A DNA stretch of 50,804 nucleotides, counting the filler, from Jimgerdemannia flammicorona (Eukaryota), in the NCBI GenBank assembly GCA_003990765.1. It is 2 parts of 2 records of this genome, joined end to end, with 100 filler letters (N's around TTAATTAATTAA, not from the genome) between each part and the next. Parts side by side here need not be neighbours in the genome. Positions count along the whole stretch, not along the records: positions 1 to 25,355 come from RBNJ01000842.1; 1 more part is not named here. The stretch is one strand, 5' to 3'. The notes beneath the pieces were generated by a model that was not told where the DNA came from, made no database searches, and saw nothing but the letters and a program-made list of their open reading frames with translations. Position numbers and translations under genes: made by a program. Position 1 is the first letter of the stretch, and each line of letters starts with the position of its first letter. Shown piece by piece: positions 1,421 to 33,243 of this stretch.

Positions 1421-1437
1421 ACTCGTTCAGAGCACTA

Positions 1438-7824: not shown

Positions 7825-8163
7825 TTGTAATGTATTTTCATTATAGGCAGTCCTATTAGAGACTTTGGAGAACTTGTCTAAGAACTAGAAGATCTTATTA
7901 CACAAGCTTAAAATTGTACAGTCAGATACCCTACAGTAGTCTCACTAAGCTCACTTATAGAACCTTTATCACCAGCTCTTACAGAACTAAAAGCAGCTCC
8001 TTCAAGAATACTTAGGCTCATTTCACTTTGCCCAAGGTCCAGAACTCCATTCTCAAGATACTCAAGCACCCCCATTTCCAGTAATAGTTCAGAAAGTGAA
8101 TCAGAGTCAGAATCTGAATCAGAATCCAGACCAAAACCAGAATCAGAAGAAAGTGATGACAAA

Positions 8164-9887: not shown

Positions 9888-9977
9888 CTTGATAGTAGTG
9901 GTGTCATTACATCTTACTTTATTAAGAAATCTCACACAAATTTGGAAACCAGTCACAACTAGTCATATAAATCTGAA

Positions 9978-12900
9978 ATGAGCCATGAAGAGTCAGCCTA
10001 TCAGCTAGACCCCTCTGTTACAGAAGAAGCAAGAGAACTGCAGCTTAGTATAGAGGATATGATCAATACTATGACCCACCAAATTCAAGAACTTTAAGTA
10101 CAACTAGAACAGCAGAAAACAAGAACTGTGAGTACATCATATTCTACTATAGTATTAGTCAGTTTCAAGTCACTCAAGCCAGATACCTTCAACAGTCATC
10201 AAGGAGGACTATCTACAGATGTATGGATCTTCTAATTAGACTAATACTTGGAGCTTACAAGAATGGAAGAAGATATGTAAATCTAATTTGCTGCTATACT
10301 TTTTTGAGAGAATGCAGCCATTTGGTAGTACAATTATATCATAATTATATCTATGTACTTATATATATGAATCAGAGATTGGGAAGCTTTCAAGAGAGCC
10401 CTTCATAGGCAGTTCAAGCCTGCTAATACTACCAAACTAGCCAGAGATAAGCTAGCAAACATCAAGCAACTCAAGTCTGTGCAAAGCTATAATATATAAT
10501 TCCTGTCAATCCTACTTGAACTACTAGTGATAGTGGAGAATAAAAAGATAGACTGCTATATCTAAGACCTGAAAGAAAACACATGAGTCAAGGTTGAGCT
10601 AGAAGAGCCACAAAATGAAGCTATGAGGATTACTAATAGGTTTGATGATATTACCTTTGGCAACTGCTTTGAACCAGAATACTGTAAGAAGAACTACTTC
10701 AAGAATCACTACAAGAACTAACCAAGGATAGTTGGCCTGATACCAATGGATTTAGACACTATGAACAAAAAGAACACCAAGCTCACCTCTAAAGAAAAAG
10801 ACTGTCTGAAGAAATCTGAGCCTGTTTCTTCTGTTATCAAATAGGATATATTGCAACCAAATATCTTAAGAAAACTAGTGAATTCTCAAGACCAGTCACC
10901 ATATTGTCTAAGAATATATCTGTCAACCCCACCATCAGTTAACCTGAGCTCAAGATCAAGAAGCTCATCCAAAGGCCCAGGCCCCTCAATATCAAACAGA
11001 AGGAGCTATTGGTCTTGATCTATACTTAGTCAAATAAGTCACTATTCCAGTTAAGGGCTGAACTCTGGTGTCTACTGGAATTGCAGTTCAATATCCTGAA
11101 GGACATTATGCTAGAATTGCATCATGATCAGGACTCAGTATCAAATATCATTTAGATGTAAGCACTAGTGTCATTAATCCAGACTTTCAAGGATAAGTTC
11201 AAGTTCTGCTTATCAACTAGAAGGATCAAGACTACACAGTTAAGAAAGGAGACTGAGTTGTATAAATGATCCTAGAAAAAGCCACTTAACTCAAGATTAC
11301 AGAAGTCCAAGAACTCTCTGAAACCAAATGAGATCAAAAAGATTTTGGCAGCACTGATCAAGCAGCAAGTCTTAGTGAAAATCATGCTCAAGCTATATTT
11401 ATTTTCAAAGGTCTAGTTAAAGGAAAAGAAGTTCAAGTACTCATAGACAGTGGAGCTATAGAGAACTTCATCAATCAGAATCTCATCAAAAGCCTCAAGA
11501 TTCTTATCAAGCCTATACTCAAGAATAATAGTATAGTCACTGCAGATGGTACTCTACACTTCATTGAGTCAATTGCTGCCAAACTATTCATCAAGATCCA
11601 GAAATATTAGAAATGGGTAGACTTTGAAATTGCATTACTAGGAGATCATGATCTGATCTTAGGAAAATCCTGGCTTATAAAACATAATCTAGACATTGAT
11701 TGATATAAGAATGAAGTCACCCTACTCTAAGATAGAGCTAATATCACTATCAAGACAGACAAGACCATGAGCAAGACTCAGATTGCAACACTGTTAGCTA
11801 TACAGTACAAGAGAGCACTCAAGAAGATAATGTATACCTTTATTGTAATGGTCTGTCTCAAGAAACAAGACAAGAGACTATCAGTCAATAAAAGTATTAA
11901 GTTACTGCTAGAAGAATTCAAGGATGTCTTTCCAGATAAGTTACCTGGTCTACCACCTATACAAGAAGTTGATCATGAAATCAAACTGACCCCAGAAGCT
12001 GTAGCACCTAAGAAATATATATACTGCATATCACTACTTGAAATTGAAGTAGTTAAGAAGGAACTAGAAGAACTACTTGCATGAGGAGCTATCCAGCCAA
12101 GCAAATATCCTTATGGCTCACCAGTCTTATTCATTAAGAAAAAGTATGGTACCCTGCAAATGTGTATAGACTATCATATACTCAACAAACTCACTATCAA
12201 GAACTACTATCTACTACCCTTGATTGATCAAATCTTTGATGCTCTCAAGAATGTCAAGTACTTCACTAAGTTAGACCTTATGTCAGAATACTACCAGATT
12301 CAAATCAAGTCAGAAGACATTCCTAAGACTGTATTTATAACCCCCTTTGGACTCTACAAATTCCTGGTCTTAGCATTTGGTCTTACCAATATATCCACCA
12401 TATTCTAGACCCTAATGAACAAGATATTTAAAGACCAACTATTTATTTTCCTGTTGGTATATATTGATGATATCCTGATCTTTAGTGTAACTAAAGAAGA
12501 ATACTTCAAATATATTTGAATAGTCCTGGAGATCCTACAAAAATACAAGCTTTATGCTAAGCTCAAGAAGTACAAATTCTTCAAGGAATAAGTCAAATAC
12601 CTTGGCCACATTATCTCTATACAAGGAATTCAAGTAGACCTATACAAGATAGGAGTAATTGAAGAATGGCCCATTCTGTCAAATCTCACAGAACTCTGAT
12701 CCTTCCTTAGTCTAGCTGGCTACTACTGCTACTTTGTCAGAAACTTCTCTGACATTACCAAGCCACTGACTAATCTCATGAGAAAGGCTCTGCACTCAGA
12801 CCACTGTACCCTATATCTGGGACCTCTTCTGTCAACAAGCCTTTCAAGAACTCAAGAACCACCTGATCCATGCTCTAGTTCTGTATAATGTAGATCAAGA

Positions 12901-14760
12901 CCTAAAATTTATAGTCATTACTAATATATTGAATTTTGCCATTAGAGCAGTCCTGTTATAAGATAATGGCAAAGAATATCATCCTATTACTTTTGAGTCC
13001 CACAAGTTGGCCCTAGCTGAACAAAAGCTAGCCACTCACAAGAAGGAACTACTGACAATAATATATACACTAGACTACTGACAATACTATTTAGAAGATA
13101 TTGAGTTTGATATTATTACTGACCATCAATCTCTTAAGTATATTAATACCCAATCTACTTTATTATGTCTACAACCCAAGTGGAGTCTCAAGCTTCAAAC
13201 CTTTAATCTGATAATCATCTACAAGCCTGACAAGACACTTATAGTACCAGATGCCTTATCAAAATGCCCAGATCTTGCCACAATCATGCAAGTTACCTTG
13301 GTATCAGAATTCCTAAACCAAATCAGACAAGTTTACAAAGAAGACATAGTTGCTACTAGAGTTTTCTCAAATGAGCTCAAGGATATATATACTGTTGAGA
13401 ACAACCTGATCTATTATCAAGATCAAGTCTACCTATCTGAAAACATGAACCTATGCTATAAGATTTTGTAAGAACACCATGACTCTCCTCTTGTCAGTCA
13501 TCTGGGAATTGAGAAGACTGTCAAGAACATTCAATACTGCTACTATTGACCAAGCATAGTCAAGGAAATCAAGAACTATATTGACAGCTGTGATCTATGT
13601 TAGCACAATAAGTCTACCAACCAAGTACCAGCCAGTTTGCTACAACTACTGCCAAATTCTACTAAGAAATTTGAGCAAGTTATTATGGACTTTATAACTC
13701 AACTACTACAAACTAAATCTGGTGCTGATACTATTATCATATTCATTGACTGCCTGATCAAGACCATGGTTGCTGAATCAACTACTACTAATACTACTAT
13801 ACCCAAAATTACAAGAATCTTCTTTAAGTCCATCTTCCATCACTATGGCCTACCATGAGTAATTGTCAGTAATTATGACTCTAAGTTCACTATTCACTTT
13901 TGACAAACTCTCTTCAAGTCCCTGGGAATCCAATTGGCTATATCTACTATCTTTCACCCACAAACTGATAGACAAACTAAGCACATGAACAGAACTCTAG
14001 AACAAATACTTAGAAACTATATTTCTTATAAGCAAGATGATTGGAACCACTATCTGACTTATATGGAGTTTGTATATAACAATACCATCCAATCATCTAC
14101 TAGTCTTTCTTCTTTCTAGTTACTCTATGGTCAAGATCCCAAGACCCCTACAAGTCTATTCTCTTTCAAGAAAAGCAGTTAAATATAAGTCTCTACTACC
14201 AAGAACCTTACAGACAAAATGGATGAACTACTTAAGATTATTACTGTGAATCTTCAGAAGACTCAACAGCATCAAGCCAAGTATACTGATAAGAAATGCC
14301 ATAATATTACTTATACTGTTGGAGATCAAGTCCTACTATCTACCAAAAACCTCAAGATATAATCTCAAGTCAATCACCCTTCAAACAAGTTCCAACCTAA
14401 GTATATTGGATCCTTCAAGATCACTGAACAAGTCTCTGCATCCTCCTACTACCTCAAGCTACTTGAAACTATAAGAGTATACCCAGTCTTTCATATGTCA
14501 CACCTCAAGACCTGGAACCAGTCACCACCCTACTCTGGTCAAATTCCTAAGTCTTTTGTCCCTATGATTATTGAAGACCATATTGAGTATAAAGCTGAGA
14601 AAATTCTTAACAAATGAATCTGCTACTGCTATTCTGAATACCTAGTCAAGTGGATGAGTTACTCTAAATATAATACTACCTAGGAACCACTGGTCAATCT
14701 CAAGAACTCTCAAGATCTAGTTCAAGACTTCAAGGCAAAATGTATTGCTCAATCTCTGTA
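9978..14760 (+). pseudogene. E3 gag-pol with C-terminal chromodomain
   Basis: Gag KPDTF; knuckle CFFCYQIGYIA (~10823); PR LIDSGA (11441); RT CIDYHILN..YIDD; IN HPQTDRQTK; chromodomain YKAEKILNK..EYLVKWMSY..T*EPLVNL (14585-14740). Confidence 0.92.
10946..11358 (+). pseudogene. E3 dUTPase domain between nucleocapsid and protease
   Basis: ELKIKKL..QTEGAIGLDLY..STGIAVQYPEGHYARIAS*SGLS..VINPDFQG*VQVLLIN..KKGD*VV*MI..DFGSTD. All five motifs are recognisable, and the stops fit CGA>TGA or CAA>TAA changes. Confidence 0.92.
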
Positions 14761-15061
14761 GTGACTTCCTTAAATTATCGACAACCTATGGCAATAACTG
14801 TATCTTATACATTGGAAGTTTACTTTGGGACCCCAGAATTAGCAGAATATTTAATAAACAAGAAGTCCACTGAAATGAAGCTATTAGCTGAGTTTGAACC
14901 CCTCCTAGTTGATTAGTCTAGTAATAGGTCCTCTGCTCTATATGAGGATGACCAATCTCTGTTAATGCATTGATATAAGTTTGAGAAATTTTGGTTAAGT
15001 ATATTTAGTCTTGTGTTACCTAAGAACTCAATGAGGATATTGGTTTTTAAGAAGAGAGAGA

Positions 15062-15526
15062 TATAACAATTTCACAGTCATATTTAGTCTTAGTATATTT
15101 TTGCATCTTTTAGTTAATCTCTTCTTATTATTTCTTAAACATTCTACTATGTTCTGCCACCTTCTACTTGCTTAGAAATCTTCTCTCAGTGCCCAGACAC
15201 CACTAGAACATTCTTATCTTTTCTTGGTACTAAGTATCTTATCTTAGCTAGTTATAGAACCTTTCAGAATATTATAGAATAGTATTAGTCAGCTTTGCTA
15301 AGAATCTATTTCTTGGTATTTCTCTTTCTTTCCAAGATCCTTCTGGATCTTTCTTTCAGATCATGTATAAATATCCTTGTTCTTTACCTGAATAAAGCTC
15401 AAAATATTTTTCTCTCAAAAATTCTTCAAGAATACTTAAATCTTTAAGTATCTCTTTGAGCTACTTTAGGCCAATCAGAACTTTCAGATTTAGCTGCTTT
15501 CTCTTAAAGAAACTAAAACTATTACA
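15062..15526 (+). repeat. E3 3' LTR
   Basis: Direct repeat of 9435-9887 with many transitions and a ~12-bp indel. Confidence 0.95.
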
Positions 15527-15531
15527 GAAAC

Positions 15532-18500
15532 CTACTGTCCCAAAGCTCAAGAAGAAGTATACCTCAAAGACTATACCCAGAGACATCTACAATAAAGTCT
15601 GGCAGAAGATTCAAAAAACTAAGATAAAAGTCTCTCTTCTATAGTTCCTATAACTGATACCAGCCAGAGTCCAAAACAAATCACTAGATCTAGCACTGGC
15701 CAAGTTCCAATCCCACAATAAGAGCCAGCTTCCATTTCTAACCAAGCTGCAGAAAGACATGTCAGCACTTATCTATATGGAGAAATTGGAGGATAAAAAG
15801 TAAAAATTCTTATAGATATAGGAGCAGCTGTCTGTATTATTGTCAAATGATTCCTGGATACCCTCCAATGGCCCATTGATGGACCATCTAACCTTAGCAT
15901 CATAGTAGTAGATGGAGCCCAAACCCAACCCCTTGGAGAAGTATGAAACATTACTATCTCTCTTAGATACATTTAGTTCTCTATCCTGAAAGCTATTATT
16001 ACTGAAGCTGTCACCTATAACATGATCCTTGGTACTAACTGAATGAAGGAAATGAATGCAGTTATCAATATTGGTCAACAAGTACTCAAGTTTGACTACT
16101 GAGACAAGAAGTATAGAGTTAAGGTGACCAGTTATGAGCAATTGAAGAAGAAGAAAAAGATAACTATTTAGGAGGAATATGCTAGTAGTGAAGAATCTAC
16201 TACAGAAGAGAAGAAAGAATCCAAAGATGGAAATAATCTCAGACTTAATCCCTGAATCAACCTGGTGAATTATAGGTCAGAAGATAATATATGGGCCAAG
16301 AACACTATCTCCATTACCATTGGAGCCATTATAGGAGAAATCAAAGAATGCCCTACCCTATCTGCCTCAAGAGATATAAGTGTCCCAAGCACTCCTCCAG
16401 GATTATTGGGTTAAGAAATTCAACTGGCACAGTCTGCCCCAAGTGTAGAAAAAAGAAAAAGAAATGCAAATATGTCCCAGAGACACCTGCAGCTGAAGCT
16501 GCAGAAGTATAGGCAATTTGAGAACAAGAATCATCTGAGGAAGAAGAAGCTCCTAACTAAAAAGTTCCTGAACAGAAAGCATCTGAAGAAAAAGAGGTCT
16601 CTGAACTTATTCTCTAGGATGACTCTTACTAAACACTACCTGAAGATAATGATCCTTGGAATATAGAAGAAGGACCCAGCACAATCCCCATTATTCCTAA
16701 GAAAGAAACTCACCAAGAAAGGGCTTTTCAGCTAGGAAGATATCTACACCAAATAGTCTTCCACTCTCTTCAAAACTATTGCTATTAGTGTCATCTATTA
16801 GACTAGTAAGAAAGACAGAAACCCCAAAGACCAGAAACCCCAACCATAGTTGCACAGTCAACTACCTTCCAAGAAGTTACCACTAGGTTGCAAAGTTGAT
16901 TTAGAGGACAAGGTCTCTTCATCCAAACAGAAGTATATCCCTTGTCTACTCTTCCCCCAACTTATGACCAAGATGGATACCAATTCCCAAGATAACAAGA
17001 AATCAACAACCAGGAACAGCATTTTTGAGTAATGGAATATTGTAACTATAGAAGATACTCAGACTGCTGAGACTGCAGACATCAGAAAATTCACCTCAGT
17101 CATGATATTGTAATATATACCTTGAAGAGAGAAGATAATAGAGGCCAGATCCAAAAAAGTCAGACCAAGAAGTCAGGAAGAAGGACCCTTAAGATCTATG
17201 ATTTAGAAGAAGATATTCTAGCTCTTATCAGATATACAATCTATCAAGAATGGGTAGAAGATGCCACCAACTTCATAGAAGCCCTAGACTCTATAGGAAG
17301 AAGAGAAATCAACTATCTCTAAGATCCCTCTACTGGAGCCAGATGGCCACACCTCAACCTCAGAGCCTGGAGGCTCTCTGCTAGTAGAGTCTTAGTCCAA
17401 GAACAGTCCAAACTCAGTAAGAATGTTATCTAGTATGCCCTTCTACATCCTAAGGCTAAACCCCTGACCAAAGCCTACCTAGAAGATATAAGATATGATC
17501 TTTACAGTCTGGAAGATGAATCCATCAAGCTTGGAAAAATATTCATGATCAAAACTGGACTAGTCATATAGCCACCCTAAGGAGCTTATATCCAACTGAT
17601 CTCAAGATCTAGACTTGCCAGATAAGGAATAACCATAGAAGGAGAAACCATTAATCCAGAATATAAAGGTAAAATCAAGGTCATCCTATATAATAGTAGA
17701 ACAGAAGATTATCTAAGCAGTCTTCATGAAGATCAAGACCCCACAATTACAAGAAGTCTCCAAACTGACTGAAGAAATAAGACAAGCCAAAGGATTTGGA
17801 AGTTCAGACAAAAAAAAAATACATCTCCTTCAAATCAACTACCTCAAGAGGAATGCCCCCCAGTAAGTACACTGCCAACTAGTCAAGCTATATAAAAACC
17901 TCATCCTGGAGCCTGGAGAACAAACCACCTTTGAAATCTTTGCACCATCTGATCTCAGAAACCTCTTCTTTGAATCCAATGAAGATATTCTATACTTGGA
18001 TATAGAAGGGCATACATTCTCTGATAAGATGAACCCAATATACTCTCAAGCAATCAACTAAAGTTGGAAAACTATCATCTTGCCAAAAGAAACCAATCAT
18101 AGAATATCTGGTGCCTTTTCTCAATTGAACTCATAGAGAAGTTTATGAACTAAACTTATTAGGAAATGGTAAAAGGTCCCATAAGAAAGGAAATACCCCT
18201 CTGTGATTCAGGAAACAGTGAAGCCTTCTATCAATATTGAAGAAGAATTGACACCCCAATAATGGCAACAACTAGTAGAACTCCTCAACAAATATCAAGA
18301 TATCTTTACTACTGATTATGGCAACCTGCCATACAACCCATCATATTATTACAGCATAAATATAGGAAATACAATACCTATCCAACAGAAATCCTATAGA
18401 ATACCCTATTATTTAAAAATATTCAAAAAGGAGTACATTCAAGAACTCTTAGACAATGGAGTCATCTGATCCTCCACCAGTCTCTGGGCCAGCTCTATAC

Positions 18501-20695
18501 TTATTGTACTAAAGAAAGGAGGATAGAGACTCTGTGTAGATTACAGAAAACTCAATTCAGTCACTGAAAAGGATACCTATTCTTTGCTCAGAATTGATGA
18601 CCTCTTGGATCAGTTACAAGATACTAGATACTTCAGCAGTATAGATCTTTTTGTAGGATTCTATAAGATCTCTATAGATCCAAAAGACATTCAAAAGACA
18701 GCCTTTCTTGCTCTAGAAAAACTGTTTGAATATCTCTGAATACCCTTTGGACTTTGCAATATGCTCTCCACCTTCCAGAGGATGATAAATTCAGTCTATG
18801 TTCTCTTGATCCACCACTGTCTGATTGTATACATGGATGATTCCAATATCTATTTAGCAAATTTTGAGGAAGACCTGTACTATTTAGAAGAATTCTTCAA
18901 GCTTATCTATAAGAACTACCTAAGACTCAATGCCAAGAAATGCTATTTTGGAAAACAGAAACTTGAATTCCTAGATTTATAGTTTTGAAAGAAGAAATCC
19001 ATACAGATTCAAAAAAAAATCAAGAAGATCAACAATTGGTCAGTACCCAAGACCCTGAAGAAAATATTATTATTTTTGATGCTAGTATCCTACTATAAAA
19101 AATTTATCAAGGACTTTTCCCAGATTGCTGCCCCAATCAGAGTCCTTCTTAAGAAAGAATTATCTTATAAATAGACAGAATTACAAGAGAAAGCTTAAAG
19201 AACTCAAGAACTGTATGACCACAGCACCAATTCTTGTATATTCTAATTTACAGAAGTTATTCATCTTATATACAGATACTTCCAAAGATGACCTAGGAGT
19301 AGTTCTAGCCCAAGAAGGATCTGACCAATAACACTATGTAATAGCTTATATAAGCTAAGCTACTAATCAGCAACAGATGAACTATGGTAGTACCAAACTA
19401 GAATACTTTACAGTTATATGAGCAGTTATCCTATTCAAGCATTACCTCATCAAAAAAAGGTTTACCCTAATCACAGATCATGTAGCCCTCAAATAGCTAT
19501 TCAATTGCAAGAAATCTATTAAAATCTTAGTCCACTAGATTCTTATCCTTCAGGATTACAAGATCACTATCATCCAAAAAGCAGGAAAAGCTCACAACAA
19601 TGTTGATGTACTTTCCTATCAGCCCCAATAAACTAGAAGAAGGGCGTTCTGAGGAACTATATCCTAAAGGAAGCTCCTCAGACTGTCAAAATACAAGAAG
19701 ATCTTATCTGAAAAGAATATCAAAAAGCCCACCAAGAATAGGTAAATATAGAAGAGAAGTTATGAATAACACACCAACATTGGTCCAATCTCAGAGCACA
19801 AGTCTGGGATATACTCAAGAAATGTGGCATCTGCTAGAAGTATCAAGGAAGAAAGAACTACCAAGTACTACTGCAACCAATTGTACTATCAGACAACATC
19901 TTTTAGAGATGAAGAGTAGATGTAATTAGACCCCTACCAGTTATACTAAGAAAAAACAAGTATATTCTTATATTTGTAGAACATCTGACCAAGTGGCCCA
20001 AGACTTTTCCAATAGAAATCACAGATGTCTTAATTATTGTAGGCCTTCTCTATAGACTCACCCTCAGATATAGACCTCTAGAAGAACTCATCTCTGACCA
20101 AGGCACAGAATTCATCAATAATATAATTATAAGTTATATCCAAATTCACAAGATTCACCTCAAATGGACTACATTATATCACCCTCAGACTAATGGTATG
20201 ACAGAAAGAATGAATCAGATCATCAAGAAAGAACTTGCCTGAGTCAATTCTACCAACTGAGACCTTTGCTTATATGAGATTCTATGGGAAATTCAGAATA
20301 CTCTTGCTGCCTCTACTAAACAAAAGCCATTCAAAATAATGTTTGCTAAGAAAGTCAGAACTACTAACTATGAAAATCTCAGAGACCTCCTCCAGAAGGC
20401 AGAATAGTTATGTAATCAGGTCCAAGTTCAGATTACCAAAGCTCAAGAAAGATAAAAGAAGTACTATAACTAGAAACAGAAGGACCAGAAGATCAAGATT
20501 AGAGATTAAGTACTAGTTTGGAGAAGTATGATTGAGACAAACTTTGCTACCAAATTGGAGCCCAAATGAGAAGGACCTTATCTTGTATACAATATCAGAG
20601 GAACCAGTATCTATTTAAGAAGTATGGATGAATGAACCCTAAAGATACCAGTACACATCAATTGTCTCAAGATATACTTCTCTCCACATTATAAA
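15532..20695 (+). pseudogene. E2 pol (PR, Cys-rich region, dUTPase, RT, RNaseH, IN)
   Basis: PR KILIDIGAAV..MILGTN (15770-16100); RT LCVDYRKLN, PFGLCN..TFQR, YMDD (18830-18842); RNaseH LYTDTSKDDLGVVLAQ; IN core YHPQTNGMTERMNQ; C-terminal KLEPK*EGPY. Confidence 0.88.
17420..17810 (+). pseudogene. E2 dUTPase domain between PR and RT
   Basis: YDLYS..IKTGL..ISRSRLAR*GITIEGETINPEYKGKIKVILYN..RQAKGFGSSD; motif 4 is partly deleted. Confidence 0.85.
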
Positions 20696-20719
20696 TCAGA
20701 ACAACTACCTTCAGACTCT

Positions 20720-21165
20720 TGTCTTCAGCTCATTTCAATCACTGCCAATTTCTCTACCCCAATTTCAAGAAGTCAACAGGAATATCCTCTAGAGAATTCA
20801 GATTCATTAAGAGAATTTTGTCCTGACCAGATGATTGTTATAGGTCCATCAACTTTAGGCTCATTATGCAATTGGAGAATAATTGCAGAACCTCTCAGCC
20901 CCAGAACAAACATATATCAGAAATATCACAGGACTATTAAGAAGAGACATTACTGCTGCAGACAGGCTCTATACCCTTTATAAGCATAATCCTATAGCTC
21001 TGATGCAAGCACAATTCTCCTAGTATGATGTATGAGGAATGAACCAAGTCATCTATCTGAGCATCATCCATGCTGTCAAAATTCTATTCTCAGAAGAAAA
21101 AGATAATAAAGATAATGGAATAGGTATTTATGTAGAAGATACCTATCTATACTAGAATGATGACT
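20720..21165 (+). pseudogene. E2 accessory ORF remnant between integrase and the polypurine tract
   Basis: Frame reads RRDITAADRLYTLYKHNPIALMQAQFS*YDV*GMNQVIYLSIIHAVKILFSEEKD, which resembles the E1 LTR ORF motif. Confidence 0.5.
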
Positions 21166-21207
21166 AAAGGACAGTCTGAGGACAGATCATCCTTTAGTGG
21201 GGACTAA

Positions 21208-22512
21208 TGTGATAAATCAAAATGTACCACCCAAATTATAACTTAAATAGATGATATAAACACATAATATAGTAATCAGACACAGTAACCATTGCTGCAG
21301 AAAACTATATAAATAGCTAGAACTACCAGATAAGATATATCTGTACTGGACCTGCACACCTATGCTGAACCAGTATACTCACTATAGATAGCAATCTATA
21401 ATTAGCAATATAGTAATCAGATATGTAGCAACTACAATGTATAAAATACTCTAGAGATAAAAGTGAATAAACCTCAGTTCAAAATTCAAAGCAAAAGACA
21501 AGTCTGCCTACTATACTTCAAGAGGAACTCTATAGTCACTGCTAGGAGATTGTGAGCTTACTTTCTACTCCAGTCCACTTTCTGATACAAAGAAGAGTTT
21601 GTTACATTTTTTGATTTGCTTGCCAGATAAGTCTGAAGAAATCACCAAGTTTAAGGAAGAACTTCACTACTTTTTGAGTAATCTACTGCTTAAGGAATAA
21701 GCCACTACATTTTAGTCTACTTGCCAGATAAGCCTGAAGAGAAACCCACATTCCCAGAGAGTCTTAAGGAATCTTGCCATATATCAGTCTCTTGATGTAA
21801 CTTTACAGTAATATGTTTATGCAAATAAAGCCAGTCTTTGATATAACTTGCTAAGAATCTGTATTGTCTGATATTTCCAGAAGAACTCTACCAATTTAGA
21901 AAGAATCTGCAACATCTGAGTTATCTGAGTTATCTGAATTATCTGTATCATCTGAGTCATTTACCCATTTCTAGTAAGCTGTGTCAAATATTTACCACTC
22001 CTAGAAGAACTGCTAAGTTATTATTCCCAGTGAGCTGATTTAGAAGAATCTGTACCAATATAATTCCTAGTAAGCTAATTCAAGAAAATCTGTACCCAAA
22101 TTAAGTTATCCACCAAATCTACATAAGGAAACCATCAAATTGCCAGATTATTCTACATAAGGAATCCATTCACACTATATAAGATTGTTATGCAGAAATT
22201 ACATACTTTTGAAAACAAGACTATCACCTAGAAATTACATACTTTTGGAGATCATCATACTATACAGAGATTGCCTGTTACTCAAGAAGAAAAACTACTA
22301 AATTGCCATATATACAAATCACCACTATACCCAGAGAACCATCTCAATTAGGAAATTGATATATAAATCACTCATAGATATCCAGCTTAAACTATTATAC
22401 TACTAAATACCAAGAATATTTTATTGCTTTTAACAAAGTAACTGGGGGCTTAAGCCAAACTATACTAACCCCCAACCTTATAATTTGCCTCTATTGAGCT
22501 GGGCACATTATA
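21208..22512 (+). repeat. E2 3' LTR (~1.3 kb; right boundary approximate)
   Basis: Starts TGTGATA right after the purine tract; TATAAATAG ~21308; AATAAA ~21466; internal repeats (CTTGCCAGATAAG x2, ATCTGAGTT-type 9-mers at ~21914-21958). hAT-like sequence begins after CATTATA (22512). Confidence 0.55.
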
Positions 22513-24994
22513 CTAGTAAGTAAATATTTTGATATCAGAGACAGTATAAATCTATTTTAAAATTTACTTATTAGCTACTACTATATAATTTATTTTATAA
22601 TTGAAAAGATATTTAAATTGAAGAGATCAAAGATAAATTTTATATAATTTATAATAAAAACTATGCTCCTCTATCTGGATTAATTAATTGAATAAGTTCT
22701 AAAGATTATGAAGAAATAGAAGATGATATCAATACTATACTATATAAATATATATTTAACAAAAGACAAAAACTAATAATAAATCCTAAGCAAGAGATAA
22801 ATATTTATTTAAAAAGTAAAACTATTAAATTTTGAGCAGAAGATGATATATTATTTTAGTAGTAAGTAAGTTAGAAATTTATATTTGAATTAGGTCAATT
22901 CAAAATATTATTTAAATTTCTCTAATTAATTTAATTGATTGAAAATATTAGAACTATAGCAGAGATTTTTCAAATCTAGCAAAAATGATATATGACTACT
23001 TAGCTATCTCAGCAATAAGTATTTCAATTGAGAGAGTTTTTTTTAAGTAATAAATATCTTATAGTGGCTAAAAGAGATATTTTAAACTCTGAAAAAAATT
23101 ATTATATTTAAAGGTATAGTAATTAGTCTAATATTTTAATAATAATAGCTAATTTCAAAATCTTGAAATATAGTTAAATTTTGAAATATCAAATAAATAT
23201 AGTACTCAGATATTATATTATATAAGTATGACTCAGAACTTGTAGATATACTATATATATATATCTAAATATAATTTCTGATATTTATATCTGATTATTA
23301 TATTCAAATATAATTTCTATTATTTTCAGTCTTAATAAGATGAGCAAGATATTATTGTATATACTAGAAATGAATAATAAATAGTATAAATGATATAATA
23401 TATTAATATATTTAAAGTTTAAGAATATATATTATACATACTTGGTCACTATATCTAAAGTACTTATATTTGTAAGCTCATAAGTCTGCAAGTAATAAAT
23501 ATAAGCTAAGAGTTTCAAATATTGCAACAAGTACAATAATAAGTATAAGTCAAGAGCTTTGAATATTTTAATAAGTATAATAATAAGTATAAGCTAAGAG
23601 TTTTGAATATTATAATAAGTACAAATAACAAGTATAAGCTAAGAGCTTTAAATATTATAATAAGTATAAGTAATAAGTATAAGCTTATAAGCTATAAGCT
23701 TCAGATATTATAATAAGTATAGATAAAATAAGCTAACTTTAATAATAAAAAATTAATAAAAAACTATATACTAATAGAATTATATAATATATTATAGATA
23801 ATTAAACTAACTATCAGCCCTAAGTTCTGAGTTCTTATGAGAAAGTGCTAAGTTCTGATTACCTATTATAGTAAAGTCCAGATATCACTTTTAGATTCTT
23901 GTATTTTCTTAAAGTACCATACTTGTATCTCTAGTTGATTACTTAGAATTATTAATAAGTTAGATCTGAAGGTTTTGTGATAAGAATACTACTTTATTCT
24001 TATATTTGAGAAAAGTAGAGCTGAGGTTACAATATACTCAGTATAGAGAATATTTATATATATTTGAGACTATAAAAAAAAAAAGCAAAATGATCTCACC
24101 TTATAATAAACTTAAATTCTATATCAATTATCTTTCTGAAGTCTTTGAAGATATATAAATAATATTATCAATAAGGTTATTATTTGGTTAAATAATAAAG
24201 AACTTAGAACTAATAATTAATATAAGAAAAAAAAAAAGAAGATTGAAGATATAATCAAGTAATTCATCTCAAAACTATCTCTGAAGCTATATTTAAAGTT
24301 ATCTCTGAAGTCTCCACCCCTGAGGTCTTCATCTCTGAAGTTACTCCTGATATTCCTAAAGCTATTTTTGAAGTCCTAGCTGCTATTCAAGCCACTATTG
24401 CTATCTAAGCTGCTCAAGCCACTACTGTTATCCAAGCTGTTCAAGCTGCTATCACTACTCAAGCTATTACTACTATCTAAGCTATTATCACTACTTAAGC
24501 CACAGCTGCTACTCAAGCTATTACTTAAGCTGCTACTTTAAAAACTAAAGATCAATCTCATATAAGTTGTAACAATTGCAGAAGATATAGAAAACTATAT
24601 TATATCCTTTTTAAAATCTGTCAACAACTCAATTTATTGATTTTTAATTTTCTACTAAGAAAGAGGCTATATAATAATACTTATTAGACAGCTACTGCTA
24701 TGGCTAGATATGGCTGAGACTTATATATATATGAGAATTTCAAAAATATAAATTAGCTATGTAAATTTTAGTTATATTTATATATAAATTTCAAATAATA
24801 TATCTTTCAAATAAAGAACTAATTATATTATAATATAAGCTACTGAGAATCTTGAATTAATATTTAATTTTATTTGACTAATTTAAATTGGACTCTCAAT
24901 TTGATTTAAATTAAATTAAATTAGATCTTAATTTGAATATAAAAATTCTCAATTTGATTTAATTTGAATTGATTCAATTTATTTAAAAGTACTA
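22513..24994 (+). mobile_element. Old, extremely AT-rich hAT relic, 3' part
   Basis: hAT dimerisation motif DFSNLAKMIYDYLAISAISISIERVF (~22963-23043; consensus FPxLxxMARDYLAIPATSVxxERxFS), decayed GATTTAAATT/AATTTGAATT subterminal units (24860-24980) and terminus ..AAAGTACTA (24994) resembling ..AGAGCACTA (1437). Confidence 0.75.
23490..23725. repeat. Tandem repeat, ~43-bp unit x ~5, within the hAT relic
   Basis: Recurrent AATAAGTATAAGCTAAGAGCTTTGAATATT-like unit. Confidence 0.8.
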
Positions 24995-25094
24995 GTAACT
25001 GCTAACTAAAATGCTATACTATATTAGGAATTAGATTCAGATACTATAATCAAATATCTATCTTCTGATTGTTATTTCTAATTTAGATCAACTA

Positions 25095-25355
25095 TTATAT
25101 TAGTTATAGAACCTTTTGAAATATTATAGTCATCTTTATTAAGAACTACTTTCTTGACTTTTCTATATATTTCTAAGATTCTTCTAGATCTTTCTTTCAG
25201 ATTTTATACAAATATTCTCTTTTTTTACTCAAATAAAGCTCAGAATATTTCTTTCAAAATTCCTTTAAGACTATTTAAACTTATGAGTATATACCTCTTT
25301 AAGTTACTTTAGGCTTACCAAAAACTTCTAGATTTAATTACTTTTTTTTTAAAAA
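25095..25355 (+). repeat. Diverged LTR related to the E3 LTRs, cut by the gap
   Basis: Shares collinear GATCTTTCTTTCAGA, AATAAAGCTCAGAATATTT, TTTAGGC and AGATTTA blocks with 9435-9887. Confidence 0.8.
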
Positions 25356-25455
25356 NNNNNNNNNNNNNNNNNNNNNNNNNNNNNNNNNNNNNNNNNNNNT
25401 TAATTAATTAANNNNNNNNNNNNNNNNNNNNNNNNNNNNNNNNNNNNNNNNNNNN
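25356..25455. other. Assembly gap: 44 N + TTAATTAATTAA + 44 N
   Basis: Six-frame-stop linker centred in a 100-base spacer; artificial. Adjacency across it is unproven. Confidence 0.97.
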
Positions 25456-25526
25456 TTTTTTTATAGTCACTCGGACTCATCCTTTATTACCCCATCTATC
25501 CTATAAAAGTACAGTGATCCCACCCC

Positions 25527-28500
25527 CTATCCAATCCCCCTAGGGGGGCCCCTCCCCTCTACCCCTTCTCGATGAAACACTACTCTATCGAATACAATCC
25601 CCACCCTCCCACCACTCTGTTCACATATCCTTGCCACCAAACCTTACTGCTGCCCCTCTGAAGGGCCCCAACCTACCCACCATCCAGTCATCAGATCCCC
25701 CAACAGCTCCTCCCACCTTAAAACCTTCTTCTGCAGTCTCATCTACCACCCCTCCTCAAACATAGATAGCCAATATCCCGCCAATCCCACCCAAACTGCT
25801 AACACCCATCTGATAGTGAGCCAACTATCCCCCACCTCCCCCCACCAGCTGAGATCTCAAGTCCTCCCAGCAATCCCCTTCACCTACTGGCCCATGCTCC
25901 ATACCTAGTCTATTCCCTATTTCAACCCAAAAGTCTCCCAAAACCTCACACTCTCTCAGCCAATGTTCTGGCATCTGCACCAAACCCCCAGCTTGCCCTA
26001 CATTGTAACACTCCTCACAATCGAAACAGCCACTATCCACCAGATGCCCAGTGTGGAAATTCAGCATGACATTCCTCTGCAGTATTCGCCACCACACCAC
26101 CCAGAACTTGGGGGGAAGCCACCACTGCACCTCAGCACTCCAAGACCAGATACCTGCCCAGTCTCACTCCTCGCCGATCCTGACTGCCTGCCAACTGCTT
26201 GGCCAAAGGTCTTGGCCAAGACCCTGTTGATACTCCACTCTGTCCCCAATATCAAAAGCAGCAAGTGGAGTACCCCCCAGTAGCAGTCTATCCCATCACC
26301 ACATACAAGGACCCCACAACACCTCTCCCTCATTGTCTTGCCAGCACAGATCAATTCTGTGCACTCCATTGACCACTCCCCACCAAAAGCCCTTAAATCA
26401 CAGCTGCTGAATTCCATTGAGCCCTATCAAAGAGAGTAGATCTCCTGAGGACCCTCAGGGGGAGGTTCTCATCTCCCATACCTTCTGCATCAGAAGTACC
26501 CAACCCTCTCTCTGTAGTTCAGCTGCTCTCTTCAACCACCAGGCTTGCAAGCAGTGCAACCTCTTAGGGAAATCCATAAGGCCAAGCCCTCCCCTGTCCA
26601 CTGGTGTCGCAAGAGTATCCCAACTAATCTGGGACCTCCTCTCTACCCAAATCCAATCCCTAGCCACCTTTGTCAGCCTCTTCACCACCCAAGCTGGGAA
26701 GTCTAGGTGGTATACCACATACCACAGCTTGGGGAACCAGTATGTATTCAGAATCGATATCTGCCCTACTAGAGAGATATGGTAGCCTCCCCAACCTTGA
26801 AGGGCCTCCCCCCAAATAGACACCCTGCTCTCCCACCATACTTGTGGCAAGACAGAACCATACACAGAGAGGAAGATGCCCAGATACCATACCACCTCAC
26901 CAGTAGGGACAATTGTTCCAATGATGTCCCCACCCATCAGCCCATTCTCTAGCACCATAGTCTCATACTTATGCCAGTTGAGCTTTACCCCAGAGTGATC
27001 CTCATACCATTCCACCATCTCCTTAAGTGCCTCGACATCTGCCACAGACCCAAGACCAACCACTATATCATCTGCAAAGGCTCCCATCTTCCACACTATG
27101 CCATAGATAGAGAGCTCCACTACCTTCTGATGAATCCTATCCATTAACAGTTCCAATGAGAGAGCATAAAGAATAGGGGACAAGGGGTCCCTCTGAGGAA
27201 CCCCTCTTCTCAAGGTAAACACCAGACCATAGTGACTATTACACATTAGTGCCACCTGACTGCCCTTGAGCAGATTTACTATAGAAGCCTGAAACCCTGA
27301 AGGAACACCAATACAATCCAGCACCTTGCCCAGCCAAACCCGCTGGACCCAGTCATAGGCCTTCTCCTGGTCCAAAAAGACCAACCTTCCATCCAGGCCA
27401 CAAGTCTGGGCCCCTTCAATGATACCATGTACCCAAGCAGTCCCATCTCTTATAAGCCTGCCTCCAACAAAGCCCCACTACTCCTCCCCCAGCACCTGTT
27501 GGGTAACCTTTTGCAGCCTTGCAACAACCACCTTAGTCACCATCTTCCTGTCCATGTAAGCATAATCGGTCACCAGTTCTTCCAATCTTCTCTCCTCCTC
27601 TTGTCTTTGTACAATAATGCCACCAGCCCAAGGTCCTGCTCTCCAACCCACTCACCACTCTGAAGAACATGATCACAGAGAGCAGTCATCTCCTCCAAAA
27701 TACCAGAGACCTTGACCATCTTCTTCTAGAAGTCCCACAGTAGTCCATCCTCCTCTGGTGCTGTTCTAGTTTTAGTTGCCTCAAAGACACTCTGGACCTC
27801 CTCACCTCACACTGGCAAGGCCAAGTCATCCAGTCCAGCCACTTGCGGTGGCCTCCATTCCCTTAATACATCTTCAATAGCTGTCTCATCAGCACCCCCT
27901 TCATCCTCACTCCACAAACCCTGCCATCTCTCTTTCAAAATCCCTAAGATTTGTTGTGTATCATATACCATGTCCCCATCGGCATCTAGGACTCCATCCC
28001 ACTGATGTCTCACCCTCCTAGCATTGAGCAGATAGGATAAATATCTAGTGGGCCGCTCACTCTCCTCAAGCCCCTGCCACTGTAGCCTAGTAGCCATACC
28101 TCGCATATGCACCTCCTCCTCTTCTCTCAGCACCTGTTGCAGTTCCAATATCTCCAACTTAATCCATGCTAACCTCCAATCCTCCACCCCATCAGAAGTA
28201 AGTAAACCTGCCCAATCTATTTGCAATCTCCTCAGCCTGCTGGAAGCATACCTCGTACACTTCCTCCTCCTTCTCCCAGCTTCTCTCCCAGCCTCTTTCA
28301 ATCTCATCTAATGGATACCCACTGACAAATCCTCACACCTCCAGTAAGAAACTTTCACCTAAATGTCCTCTACCCATAAATCCCACAACCCCTTCTCAGC
28401 CAGCAGGGAGGAGTTGAGGCACCAATGTCCGAGTCCATCTCCACTCCCCCCAAACTGCCCCTGCCCCAACAGACCCCAGTAGTCTGACCATGGGCACTAT

Positions 28501-29159
28501 TCCACCTCCAACATCTTCCAGACATCAGCCCTCCAGCATTCTGCCATCAGAATCCAGTCAATCCTTGTACCTAAGCCATTCACCCAATACATGTAGACCC
28601 TGGAGTCACCCCATTGTATTCTACCCATATCCCCTAAGAAGCTCAGTCTCTCCACCTCCTCTCATACATCCAGGCCTCCACTTCTCCCTCCTGTACTCCT
28701 CCCACCATCAGTGTGGTCCAGATGCTGATCCTGAACCATATTAAAGTCCCCCCCAAGCACATTGACCCCTTCTGCTAAGAGAACACCCTCCTCCAGTAGC
28801 TCCTCAATCCATACAATCTACTCACCCCTAACTGCAGGGCAATAGTAAGAGCCAACCCTCACCGACTCCCACCCTGGCCACTGCCAATCTCCCCAGACCA
28901 AGTGGTCACCCTAGCTCCTGATTCCCTCCAAGTCACCTCTACCCTTCCTCACCAGAATTGCCACTTTTTCAAACCAAGCAGTAGCCCTGCCCCATTCCTT
29001 AGTCCACTTCACCTGATCATCCTCATCCTCACACTGAACATCCTGTAGTAAAAAGAGATCAGCCTCCAATCCCTTGAGCCAAGTAAAAATATTCTTATGC
29101 TGTCCAGAACCCTTCAACCCATTCACATTCAAAGAGAAAATGTTAGTTATACTGTTCAT
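25527..29159 (-). pseudogene. LINE A ORF2: APE endonuclease, RT, C-terminal CCHC
   Basis: IFSLNVNGL..LFLLQD, LGGDF, RIDW; RT LDQEKAYDWV, RRGVPQRDPLSPILY, AFADD, YLGI; CFDC..EHWLREC; ends ..PPRGIG*. Confidence 0.92.
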
Positions 29160-29190
29160 AAGGAATAATGTTAAAAAGTGATCCCATTCT

Positions 29191-31150
29191 CTACAAGTCC
29201 ACATTCAGCTCCTCCTGCACCAAGTCCAATTCATGTTCAGTAGCAAGTTCCCTTTCCCCAGCTTTTCATGCCTCCAACCCTCTCAGAAGTTCTACCATTG
29301 CCTCATCTTCCCTCTCCTCAAATTCCTCTCGATACTCCAGACAGGCCTCTCTCCAGAGCTGCAAACCATGATGCTCAGCCCAACAGTAGGTTACCTGCTC
29401 ACCTGTAACCACCACCAGCTCTGCTTTCCTCACCTCATCAACCTCATAACCCTCCTCCTTTAAGAGGATTGTAAGAATCTCCTCCCTCAGTGCCTCTACC
29501 ACTCCATCACTATGCAGAATCTACTCCCAATGCTCCTCAGGCATAACCCACAGATCCACTTCTCCCAATGCATCAGCTGCAAGGTTATCCATCACCTTAC
29601 TCATCCACAGCAAGTTTTCTATCTCCTTCCCTCCTAGAGTCCCTGGCCAGCCCATATCCAACATCATGGTGTCAGCACCCACACTGGCAGCCTCATCCTA
29701 CTCCTCCTCAGGGATATTCACCAGCTCATCCTCGTCAGCCACCACCACCTGGCCCCCTTTTGCCACATCAGGGACCCCAAAATGCACTTGCTGGGCCCCC
29801 TATATCAGCACATCCTCTATTATCCTTCTTTTTGCAGCCAGGCCCCTCCTGATCAGAGGGGGGGGGGGTGGAGTCCAATTCCAGCTCCCAGACCTCGAAG
29901 GTACCATTGGTAAATGGGTCCTTGCTCAGTACCTTCTCATCTCCTTTCTTGCCTACCTCCACCTCCCCTACCCCTTTACTAGCCCAGACACTGGCTTTGA
30001 TGCCCCCAGACACCTCAGCCCCAACTGCCTTCTTCTTCACCTCTACTGTCATACTCACCAGTAGCTCCCTCTGTCTCCTGCACCCCTGTGCCTGCTCCCA
30101 CTGCCCCTTGTCCATGCGGATATGCTTCTCCTCCACAACCTCCAGATGCATCGACTCCTCATACATCTTCCAGGCCCTTGCCCTCCTCTCCACAGCTCCA
30201 CTCATCTCCTCCAGTATCTCCAACAAGTTCTCCTCCTCCTTCTTACTCCTCTTCACCCTTGACATCTTACAGATGAATGCCCCCTACATTAGCACAGAAG
30301 GCCAGTCACTTGCCCTCCCCATAGCCTCCTTGTCCACCAGCCTAATTCTGATATCAATGTTGCTCATCCTGATCATTGTTCCCTCCCACACCTGAAAGCC
30401 AATGTCCACCACTTCACCATACTCAATCATCACCTCCTCCACCCTCTTCCTAGTCTCCTCCTTAGTCACTATGAGCACCCCCTTCACCAGAAGCTGCACC
30501 ACCCTGGGGTCCCATTGTAAGCACCACACCATAGAGACTACCACCTCCCCAACCACGACTCCAGCCTTCAGTACCTCATCCAATGGACCTGCCTCCTCAA
30601 AGCCCACCTCGACCCCCTCCAGACCCTTCAAGAACTTCACTGAGACCGCCCCAGCCATCTGCTTTGAAACAAGCCCCAGAACTATCCTCACCATCACCAC
30701 CAAACCCCAGAAGCACAAGATTACTGCAAACTCCGAGATTGACTTCTTGAGCAACAGAGCCACTACCAGCCCCATTACACCATCTACCAGGTCCCCCTTC
30801 CACATCGGGAACCCCTGCACCACCTGGCCATCAGCCATCACATCTCTTTTTTTTTCCTGAATCCCCATCACACTCCTATCAGCAGTCACACCTCCAGCCA
30901 CAGCCCCTCCTCCCCCTACATCTGTACTCCCAGCCAGAGCACCTCCCCTTCTCCCAAGACTCACCTTGCCCTTCCCCTTAGCAGCACCAGCCCTAAAGCC
31001 AGCCAGCCACCCACTCTCCTTAACCTTGTCTGCGAAGCTTAGGATACCTGATCTTTCTCCATTACTACTAGACACCAGTCCTTCTCCAGAGCCTTCTCCA
31101 CTCTTGGGCCCGCCAAAGGCCCCCATCCCCAGGCCATAACTCCTCCCCAC
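29191..31150 (-). pseudogene. LINE A ORF1
   Basis: ORF pieces 30284-31150, 29768-30265 and 29266-29502 lie upstream of ORF2 and are homologous to copies B and C. A central VQLLVKGV..EYGEVVDIGF segment looks RRM-like. Confidence 0.8.
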
Positions 31151-31313
31151 CTACTACCAGTTGAAGGCCCTAGGTCTACCTGACCTAGTACATGCACCAG
31201 TATATTCATTGCTTTCCATGTTGCTAGTCACCTCTCACCAAAAACATTGTCAAAAGTATTACCTGAGTCTTGTGTCACCTGAATGTTACTGGTAAAAGGT
31301 ACCACAGGCAAGT

Positions 31314-33243
31314 CTCCTGCCAGAGCTGCAATCCATGTCACTTGGCCCAACAGTATTTAGCCCTCTCACTAGCGACCCCTGCTAGCTCAGCCTCTCACTT
31401 CTCATCCACTTCATACTCTTCCTCCTCCAGATACACTGCAAGGATCTCTGCCTTCAATACTAACTCTACACTGTCCCCCTGCAGGATCTGTGCCTAATGC
31501 TCATCACTTATCACTCTCAAGTCCACCTCCCCCAGCTCTTCCACTGCCAGATTATTCATCATTCTATATATCCAAAGTAGGTTTCCTACCTCCTTCCCTT
31601 CTAGAGTTACCAGTCGCCCACTGTCCAATATTGTGATATCAGCCCCAGCACTTGCAGCCTCATCCCACCCCTCCAGAACATCCACCAGTTTCTCCTCACC
31701 AACTGTCTCCACCTATCCCCCCTTTGCCATCTCTGGAACTCCAAATTACACTTGCTGGACCCCCTTCATAGGTGCATTCTCCTCCACCCTGCACCAGGAA
31801 GCTGGACCCCTCCTGATGAGTAGAATAGGGATAGGTGATCCCTTCCAGTCTTCTTTCCAGACCTCAACCATACCATCAGCATATGGATCACTGCTGACTG
31901 TCTTCCTGCCCTCTCCTGATCCTTTTACTGCACCCCTATTATCTTCACCAACCCAGACACTCACTTTGGCACCTCCCATTTCCACCATTCTACCAGCCTC
32001 CTTCTGTGGTCAACTTTCCAACTTGGCCAATAGCTCCTTCTGGCACTTATGTCTCTGGGCTTTTTTCCATTACACCTTGTCCACTTGAATCTGCTTCCCA
32101 TCTACCACCTCTAAGTATGTTGACTCCTCAAAAGCCTTCCAAGCCTTCACTTACTGCTCCACTACTCCACTCAGTTCTTCTAGTGCCTTCAGCAAGTCCT
32201 CTTCCTCCTCCTCACTCTCCTTCACCCTCATCACCTTGTATAAGATCACCCCCCAGACTATCTCTGATGGCCAGTCCCTTGCCTTCCAGTAGCTTCTTTC
32301 CCTGCCAGCCAAATCCTCACATCCACATCTCCCATCCTGAGTGAGGTCCTCTCCCAGACTCTGAACTCGATATCCACCACCTCTCCATACTCCTCTATGA
32401 CCTTCTCAACTCTCCTTCTTATCTCCACCACCATCACTGTGGACACTCCTTTTATCAGCAGTTGGACCACTCTGGGGTCCCATTTCAGACAGTATGCCAT
32501 TAGGACACACATCTCCCCAACTATCAATCCAGCCTTCAGCGCTTCCTCCAGGGGCTCGGCCTCCTCAAAATCCACCTCCACTCCCTTCAATCCCTTCAGG
32601 AACTTTACTGATACTGCTCTAGCCACCTGCTTGGTGATAAGCCCTAGCACCATTTTTGCCATCACTGCCAGGCCCCAGAAGCACAACATCACCATGAATG
32701 CCAAGATTGATTTCTTAAGTAACAGAGCCACTGTTAGGCCCATCACACCATCTGCCAAATCTCCTTGTCTTCTAAGCCTCAGTCACTCAGCCATACTATC
32801 AGCAGTCATATCTGGATTTTTTTCCAGATTGGCAGTCTTGTCACCATTAGCTGTCACATTCTCCCCAGCTGCTACTCCTCTAGCTCCACTGTCCTCACCA
32901 CCAAGAGCTACATGGCTGGCTTCTCCATCTTCTTACCTTTCCTCAGCCAGCCCTCCAGCCCAGTTGCCTGCTGCCTCCCCTTCACCATCTCTACAAAGCT
33001 TACCCTCCCAGACCCCTGTCCTCCCCCACTGCCTCCTCCCCCACCTCATCCTTCTGCCAGCAACCCCCTCATACCTTCCCCCAGGCCAGGACCTCTCCCC
33101 ACATACTGCTAGTCGAATGTGCTAGGGCTGCCCTGCCCTGTATGCACCCCAGATTACTTGCTGTTTGCCATTGCCTTAGTACCTTTCTCTAATAAATGAC
33201 TTGAAAGTATGTTATAGAGTATGTATAATGTGAGTGGTAGCTA
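31314..33243 (-). mobile_element. LINE copy B: 5' UTR plus most of ORF1, cut by copy A
   Basis: ORF 32258-32758 (ADGVMGLTVALLLKKSI..WDPRVVQLLIKGV) matches A ORF1. Homology stops at ~31314, where the 5' end of A begins. Confidence 0.88.

Follow-up and report, generated by a model that had tools for sequence, protein, structure and literature searches.

The window analyzed here, a stretch of 50,804 nt of Jimgerdemannia flammicorona DNA, contains three Ty3/gypsy elements, detected by Pfam scans on read-through translations in which stops were entered as X, as well as host genes (Table 1). Element E2, on the plus strand, exhibited matches to gag-asp_proteas, RVT_1, RT_RNaseH and rve in this order between 15.8 and 20.2 kb, the match to rve being weak (about 19916 to 20185; E = 0.0078). 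The dUTPase lies between protease (PR) and reverse transcriptase (RT), giving an order of PR-dUTPase-RT-RH-IN; the succession protease, RT, RNase H and integrase is the one by which Ty3/gypsy elements (Metaviridae) are defined. A tblastn search with the pol of element E1 matched E2 at 15809-16138, 17488-17694 and 18266-19628. The two elements are 33% identical in RT and 38% identical in RNase H, and neither is nearer to the other than to a third element, element A, which is nested in E2. The LTRs of element A are direct repeats with 87 to 91% identity, and its Pfam matches are dUTPase, RVP_2, RVT_1, RNase H, Integrase_H2C2, SH3_Tf2-1 and Chromo. It is inserted between gag and protease of E2 and flanked by GGAAC and GAAAC, which resemble a target site duplication with one transition. 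The dUTPase precedes the protease in element A and follows it in E1 and E2.

The integrase of E1 is interrupted by a 14-nt tandem array (1030-1334) and a remnant of a hAT-type transposase (1-1334, minus strand), in whose translations a BED-like zinc finger and a D-x-WTS motif were recognized by eye; due to this interruption, the 3′ end of E1 lies outside the window. Downstream of E2, positions 22000-25400 are very AT rich (GC, 20 to 25%), and a third, partial copy of the LTR of the nested element (80%) at 25127-25255 is followed by a run of N. The strand from 25500 to 37000 is strongly C rich (GC skew of −0.3 to −0.57) and contains 300-nt repeat families at spacings of about 1968 and 3800 nt, with an RVT_1 match on the minus strand at 26455-27477; this region is another, different retroelement or a repeat array. 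The window is nuclear DNA of a eukaryote. The helicase fragment at 38.7 to 39.6 kb was nearest to yeast Dob1 (271 bits) and Neurospora FRH (259 bits), with human MTR4 behind these (227 bits), and the host thus appears to be a fungus.

Table 1. Positions of genes and other features in the window
Feature	Position	Strand	Basis or remark
E1 gag, protease, dUTPase, RT, RNase H, integrase zinc domain	1335-6002	−	Pfam
LTR-like stretch: start TGGATAATG, TATAAAT, AATAAA, end ...CA, then PBS-like TGGTGCCCATTGG	6105-6572	−	By eye
E1-side orphan ORF, 273 codons, 5 in-frame stops; ATG 7408, TAA 6589-6587	6587-7408	−	
Conserved TATAAAAGAA box and leader AAGACTTACCACAAA just before the E1-side ATG	7401-7485	−	Comparison with L001
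E2 gag part, CFHCG zinc knuckle	8164-9434	+	Translations; separated from remaining E2 by nested element
Element A, chromodomain gypsy nested in E2	9435-15526	+	LTRs 9435-9887 and 15062-15526
E2 protease, dUTPase, reverse transcriptase, RNase H	15527-19399	+	Pfam; many stops and frame changes
E2 integrase coding	19400-20690	+	Codon starts at positions = 2 mod 3
Integrase frame open for 115 codons, overlapping ORF3 in other frame	20636-20983	+	ORF list
E2 ORF3, decayed copy; natural stop TAA 21165-21167	20691-21167	+	Four intact relatives
Possible polypurine tract AGTGGGGAC, then TGTGATAAAT, possible start of 3′ LTR	21196-21217	+	By eye
Mtr4/Dob1-type helicase, host gene (DEAD, stalk, beta-barrel domains)	38733-42100		
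Protein kinase fragment, host gene	46821-47423		

A probable third gene in E2

A further reading frame, ORF3, begins where the coding of the E2 integrase ends, the last conserved integrase motif finishing a few codons before its start, and stops about 30 to 40 nt before a motif resembling a polypurine tract (PPT) and the start of an LTR. The copy in the window is decayed: ATA is present at 20691, where relatives have a start Met, and there are 9 in-frame stops, while the intact ORF has about 158 to 172 codons. A frame-0 read-through of 20643-21158 was utilized as a query, and all four of the proteins returned (P0062 to P0065) were open relatives with 56 to 74% identity, open frames being selected by construction as ORF3 relatives are predicted proteins from contigs of 662 to 1445 bp. 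These four proteins, of 100 to 172 aa and without a Pfam domain, derive from contigs of 752 to 1445 bp and, when aligned with ORF3, have a common Met start and 58 invariant columns. Two more members, forming one cluster, were also found. The full-length relatives end at a stop that matches the natural stop of the window copy. An HMM built from the relatives alone matched 20703-21095 over HMM positions 7 to 137 (204 bits; E = 1.7e-62). Every one of the nine stops falls at a column occupied in relatives by Gln (six stops), Arg/His (one), Leu/Trp (one) or Trp (one); stop columns of the Gln, Trp and Arg type are the pattern expected from decay by C-to-T and G-to-A changes. In addition, P0064 has an N-terminal extension of 42 residues that aligns with another frame of 20566-20691 (score of 105, 22 identical residues). 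This extension is translated integrase-end DNA, indicating that the junction between integrase and ORF3 recurs on another contig.

A reading of this DNA made from the sequence alone had placed an accessory ORF at 20720-21165, which nearly coincides with the decayed ORF at 20691-21167, and had described its location as env-like. This description was borne out by the position of ORF3 between the integrase end and the PPT/LTR-start-like motif and by its intact relatives. The same reading had looked to conservation of the ORF in other copies of E2, and on this point it stands, since open relatives exist. The TG motif that comes after the polypurine-like run past ORF3 probably opens the 3′ LTR. Comparison of 5.9-8.3 kb with 20.6-25.5 kb by blastn and Smith-Waterman detected no second copy of an E2 LTR above background, and no repeat of the 21.1-25.1 kb flank was found upstream of E2 gag.

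The same stretch could instead encode a C-terminal tail of the pol/integrase polyprotein of E2, with ORF3 an artifact of gene calling on fragments. The integrase frame is free of stops for 115 codons up to 20983, whereas the rest of this copy has about 1 stop per 31 codons, and chromoviruses, such as element A, have an integrase tail domain at that position. However, the frame conserved in the relatives is the other one, with Met at the same column and a continuation for 60 codons beyond 20983, and it is in this frame that the window stops occupy Gln, Trp or Arg columns. Moreover, the frame-2 stretch has no Pfam family; both frames of 20636-21158 were free of Pfam matches at E ≤ 10, Chromo included. 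A query of integrase plus tail returned 52 distant pol proteins of ≤31% identity, which matched in the integrase part only; coverage of the query was ≤71%, and none of the 52 covered its last part. An origin of ORF3 as an artifact within a pol tail is, hence, improbable. The open integrase frame up to 20983 either belongs to pol, as a tail at its C terminus, or has arisen as a by-product of ORF3, and a pol tail may be encoded in part of the region, along with ORF3 or in its place. Least probable of all is that ORF3 is a host gene or another mobile gene lying beside a truncated E2: the 3′ border is not fixed by an LTR pair in the window and the relatives come from short contigs without context, but the start of the ORF is no more than a few codons away from the end of the integrase, the P0064 contig has the same integrase-end DNA directly upstream, and decay of the ORF is similar in degree to that of E2 pol.

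The preferred reading is that positions 20691-21167 (plus strand) are likely to be a dead copy of a genuine third gene of E2, encoding a lineage-specific, non-env accessory protein, and that the E1-side family described below is a separate one whose kinship with ORF3 is unproven.

Properties of the ORF3 protein

The intact relatives of ORF3 specify an acidic protein of 137 to 172 aa. About 135 residues are predicted to form six helices, one of them of 35 residues. Beyond these is a tail that is very acidic and has conserved aromatics; the two full-length relatives have 17 or 18 acidic residues among their final 40. The AlphaFold2 model is helical, with a pLDDT of 56.9 overall and of 66 to 78 for residues 31 to 110. 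For three relatives, the maximum Kyte-Doolittle mean over 19 residues was 0.94 to 1.46 and the pI was 4.5 to 8.1. Full-length forms of the ORF3 and E1-side proteins have a pI of about 4.5 to 4.9, and both have acidic tails. No membrane segment was detected by hydropathy in either protein. As both are acidic, helical and devoid of a membrane segment, they are not envelope proteins. What ORF3 shares with the env of errantiviruses and retroviruses is just its location, downstream of pol and ahead of the 3′ LTR; in contrast to these, the ORF3 protein is much smaller, acidic and helical and, by hydropathy, lacks a signal peptide and a membrane segment.

A search of PDB sequences with the E2 family produced nothing better than E = 0.21; four tissue-factor chains (E = 0.21 to 0.73) were taken as chance matches. 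At a threshold of E ≤ 0.001, Foldseek comparison with the PDB was negative for the models of both families (best E values of 0.88 and 1.1), and no relative of either family was present among 19 and 80 pattern matches in viral contigs. The ORF3 and E1-side families match no curated family; this is a statement about curated families, the literature search having been word based. The proposal of a protein family in the sequence-only reading holds for E2 ORF3 insofar as there is no Pfam, PDB or Atlas match.

The E1-side ORF

The second peptide of the by-eye comparison, from E1, lies within the orphan ORF on the E1 side. Its relatives (P0053 to P0061, P0066 and P0067) have 26 to 80% identity, and five of these are open relatives at 60 to 80%. 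A profile search of 1.84 billion representatives returned only five E1-side clusters, of 138 to 342 aa and with 26% identity at the lowest, none of the five exhibiting a fusion to pol; two further members were found besides these clusters. Members of the family have common ends, an MPA... start and an LNFLL C terminus, and share the blocks W-x-EYEI, AKKIHQ-x-FRH-x-PW, W-x-P-x-LQDNPDQ-x-LQGL...F-x-GP-x-I and an acidic tail with DLISF. To judge from this alignment, the E1 motif picked out by eye is a true family motif of the E1-side proteins, and the stop inside the E1 peptide corresponds to Trp in 5 of the 7 relatives covering the column. By eye, the D-L-I-[SNI]-F followed by acidic residues in the tail, and LNFLL, resemble short linear motifs that might engage a host partner. 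No match for this family was obtained among PDB sequences. In the ESM Atlas, the best feature score for P0054 was 0.83 with a TM of ≤0.33, its own model having a pLDDT of 0.35.

When metagenomes were scanned with the E1-family alignment, none of 250 pattern matches proved to be a relative, while a scan with P0060 returned one 1535-bp contig, L001. A TATAAAAGAA box is located 81 nt before the ATG in L001 and 77 nt before it in the window. The 29-nt stretch leading up to the ATG (positions 355-383 of L001, matching 7428-7401 of the window) shows 90% identity, while the proteins are only about 42% identical. Conservation of the box and leader (window 7401-7485, minus strand; L001 295-383) suggests that the E1-side ORF has its own promoter.

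The E1-side ORF is situated upstream of E1 gag and yet ends 14 nt before the LTR-start-like TGGATAATG, the LTR-like stretch at 6105-6572 (minus strand) being located between the ORF and gag; no second copy of this stretch occurs within the window. Past the stop of its ORF, L001 has a run of 12 purines and TGTAATAAGT. The region of L001 beyond the ORF aligned with window 7655-7434 (minus strand) with a score of 135, against a background of 65.6 ± 12.3 and a next unrelated score of 108, and the L001 ORF is bracketed by a 33-nt direct repeat (82%) whose copies, at 170-202 and 1481-1513, are 1311 nt apart. The L001 unit may be LTR-ORF-LTR, a set of units in tandem or a long LTR that contains the ORF. 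The ORF in the window may likewise be contained in a long LTR; it may also be a gene preceding gag, or the final gene of a tandem copy that lay upstream and has been lost. By tblastn with 52 pol proteins, no trace of an integrase was detected upstream of the ORF (best E = 0.047 in 5900-8400), and Pfam scans of three frames of 7409-8158 found nothing at E ≤ 10. A GPY-like motif seen by eye in the upstream region was dropped because it overlaps another candidate. No LTR pair was evident around the ORF in the window, the score being 91 with a background of 72.6 ± 14 and other segments reaching 131. An apparent homology over 240 nt between the E1 and E2 LTRs (window 6548-6314, minus strand, and 21252-21488; z = 7.5 with mononucleotide shuffles) was withdrawn because other segments of the window score 160, 160 and 152 as compared to 163.

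A further stretch of 36 nt (…CCTCTGCYCTAYATGAGGATGRCCAAT) is 86% identical between L001 3-38 and window 14921-14956. It lies about 340 nt before the ORF in L001 and, in the window, about 100 nt before the polypurine tract of the nested element, in 3′ untranslated sequence. It occurs once in the window, and there were 0 chance matches in 100 shuffles.

Relationship between ORF3 and the E1-side ORF

The two peptides that had been aligned by eye are present in the window, that of E2 at 20952-21017 and 21024-21044 (plus strand) and that of E1 at 7058-7099 and 7004-7054 (minus strand). The E2 peptide (20952-21044) lies inside ORF3 and corresponds to predicted helices 4 and 5 of the P0063 model. From this match, it had been proposed that divergent elements keep the same small helical domain at different positions. 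In its full form, the proposal is that E2 ORF3 and the E1-side ORF are remote homologues, derived from one ancient accessory gene in two gypsy lineages whose RTs are about 33% identical; we consider this possible but rather doubtful.

Pairwise comparisons gave no more than chance scores. Smith-Waterman alignment of a 270-aa E1 stretch with E2 frame 0 scored 28, compared to a shuffle mean of 26.3 (standard deviation, 4.0; P = 0.33; 2000 shuffles), and the best alignment in this frame differs from the one drawn by eye; for E2 frame 2, P was 0.22. The two 32-aa peptides alone gave a P value of 0.04, after having been picked by eye. With tblastn, the match had an E value of 8.1 and was among about 40 equally good chance hits. 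The drawn alignment fared in two ways, being at chance level by Smith-Waterman and tblastn and the top alignment in hhalign, HMMER and MAFFT; the recovery of one alignment by these three programs is a point in favor of homology.

Profile methods produced evidence on both sides. An E1-family HMM built without the window row scored ORF3 at 8.7 to 8.8 bits, the best non-self match in the window, the next best among 8337 sliding windows in six frames being 5.1 bits; the E value was 3.4e-4 when the search space was three frames of 20560-21260 but 0.52 window-wide. When the core that had been aligned by eye was fixed and the 37 residues upstream were shuffled, 0 of 2000 trials reached the observed 8.7 bits. 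These bits, however, lean on an H and a P that are absent from the E2 relatives: the KHNP of the proposed pattern is K[RW]N[ITA] in the intact proteins, and H and P are thus private to the window copy. Intact E2 proteins scored 1.1 to 7.3 bits with the E1-family HMM. The reciprocal E2-family HMM missed the E1 ORF in the six frames of the window and scored eight E1-family proteins at −1.2 to 1.9 bits. In comparison with the E1-family motifs, the E2 relatives have Q in the W column and K[RW]N in place of RH-x-P, and the third block has no counterpart in order. The TGA at 21033 had been reported to fall on the Arg of E1 by a CGA-to-TGA change; the column is occupied by Gln in both of the E2 relatives that cover it and by K, R or T in the E1 family, and so this detail was not sustained.

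Comparison of profile with profile by hhalign yielded low probabilities, of 0.3 to 1.3% for the E1 family versus the E2 stretch of the window and 0.86% for family versus family (P = 0.064; 50 columns). With intact proteins only, the probability was 0.44% on a different stretch of 13 columns, and addition of predicted secondary structure did not raise the values (0.05 to 0.16%). The hhalign score was, nonetheless, reached by only 2 of 200 column shuffles. Gapped profile Smith-Waterman scores were reached by 3 of 150, 17 of 250 and 17 of 250 shuffles, and a gapless profile score at offsets 13 to 15 had a P value of 0.046, with offset 14 ranking 5th of 136. A second match (DNPDQFLQGLI... with RIDQHLQTLI...) was equally good but out of order, indicating that the Q/L-rich sequences of both families match easily. 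Kinship of the two ORFs was, therefore, not upheld by the profile-profile test, which the sequence-only reading had itself named as one that could refute it (0.86%, P = 0.064, for the families; ≤0.44% with intact proteins only; nothing from the reciprocal HMM).

A weak hint came from structural predictions. When the secondary-structure strings predicted for both proteins were compared, agreement was highest (85%; MCC, 0.65) at offset 14, the register of the sequence alignment, and in 5000 helix/loop permutations this agreement was reached in 0.2% at any offset and in 0.08% at offsets 13 to 15. Both proteins have a pI of about 4.5 and an acidic tail, and I-[DER]-W-x-x-P is present in 7 of 10 proteins of the joint alignment. 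Against this, the structure models are of low confidence (pLDDT of 50 to 57; AlphaFold values of 56.9 for the E2 side and 50.4 for the E1 side).

As judged by sequence, the resemblance of the E1 and E2 ORFs is at chance level, with common descent unproven, and we would give such descent an appreciable but clearly minor share of the probability. A more specific version is slightly less probable again: two diverged dUTPase-bearing gypsy lineages would keep one ancient, acidic six-helix accessory gene, with I-[DE]-W-x-x-P in its acidic tail, beside an LTR, the E1 type having its own conserved TATA box about 80 nt upstream. If true, this would be a third gene retained over a long time in a clade of fungal gypsy elements and possibly a Rev/CERV-like regulator.

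Discussion

We read both proteins as lineage-specific accessory proteins of the ORF3 type, which are of a known kind. The closest parallel is CERV of Cer1, a Ty3/gypsy element of C. elegans; CERV is described (PMC10309623) as the product of an ORF in the env position that is not env-like and is needed for export of the genomic RNA. According to the same account, it has 517 aa and is translated from a five-exon spliced mRNA with gag exons, and the relatives mentioned there are confined to a narrow lineage. E2 ORF3 is likewise in the env position and not env-like but has about 160 codons as compared to 517 aa, and the two are likened by analogy, with no claim of sequence similarity. By this analogy, the ORF3 protein would most likely be nonenzymatic and serve as an adaptor or a regulator, its target being either the RNA or proteins of the element itself or a factor of the host. 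Its role might then resemble that of CERV for Cer1, the functional part of the likeness being one that we infer. Expression of ORF3 would presumably be from a subgenomic or internally started transcript.

Extra ORFs are also on record for other LTR retrotransposons. Fungal gypsy elements with an "add. ORF" of unknown function appear in the survey of Novikova et al. (2010; PMC2864245), which also describes dUTPase-bearing gypsy elements in basidiomycetes and Tuber with a varying position of the dUTPase. BcGypsy1/Boty carries an extra ORF, brtn (bioRxiv 10.1101/2021.04.13.439636). The likeness to these cases, compared by description only, is that of extra ORFs in fungal Ty3/gypsy elements and of a dUTPase whose position varies, as it does in the window. 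For bdelloid rotifers, PMC5408684 describes dUTPase-bearing, gypsy-like LTR retrotransposons with many unrelated ORF3 types, some of them common to distant retroelements. The bdelloid ORF3s named there include env, GDSL esterase and DEDDy exonuclease, whereas the two ORFs of the window match no known family.

As it stands, E2 contains an ordinary lineage-specific ORF3; the specific claim of homology with the E1-side ORF is not supported, and a weak hint of it remains. The extra genes found in LTR retrotransposons have been catalogued poorly, and for most of them no role is known. The window adds two orphan families that have intact relatives in public data. Both are linked to gypsy elements, and one is clearly located between the integrase and the LTR. 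A shared origin of both ORFs would strengthen their reading as accessory proteins. If they are functional accessory proteins, these families would offer a means of studying the way in which gypsy elements of fungi regulate their own expression or cope with the host.
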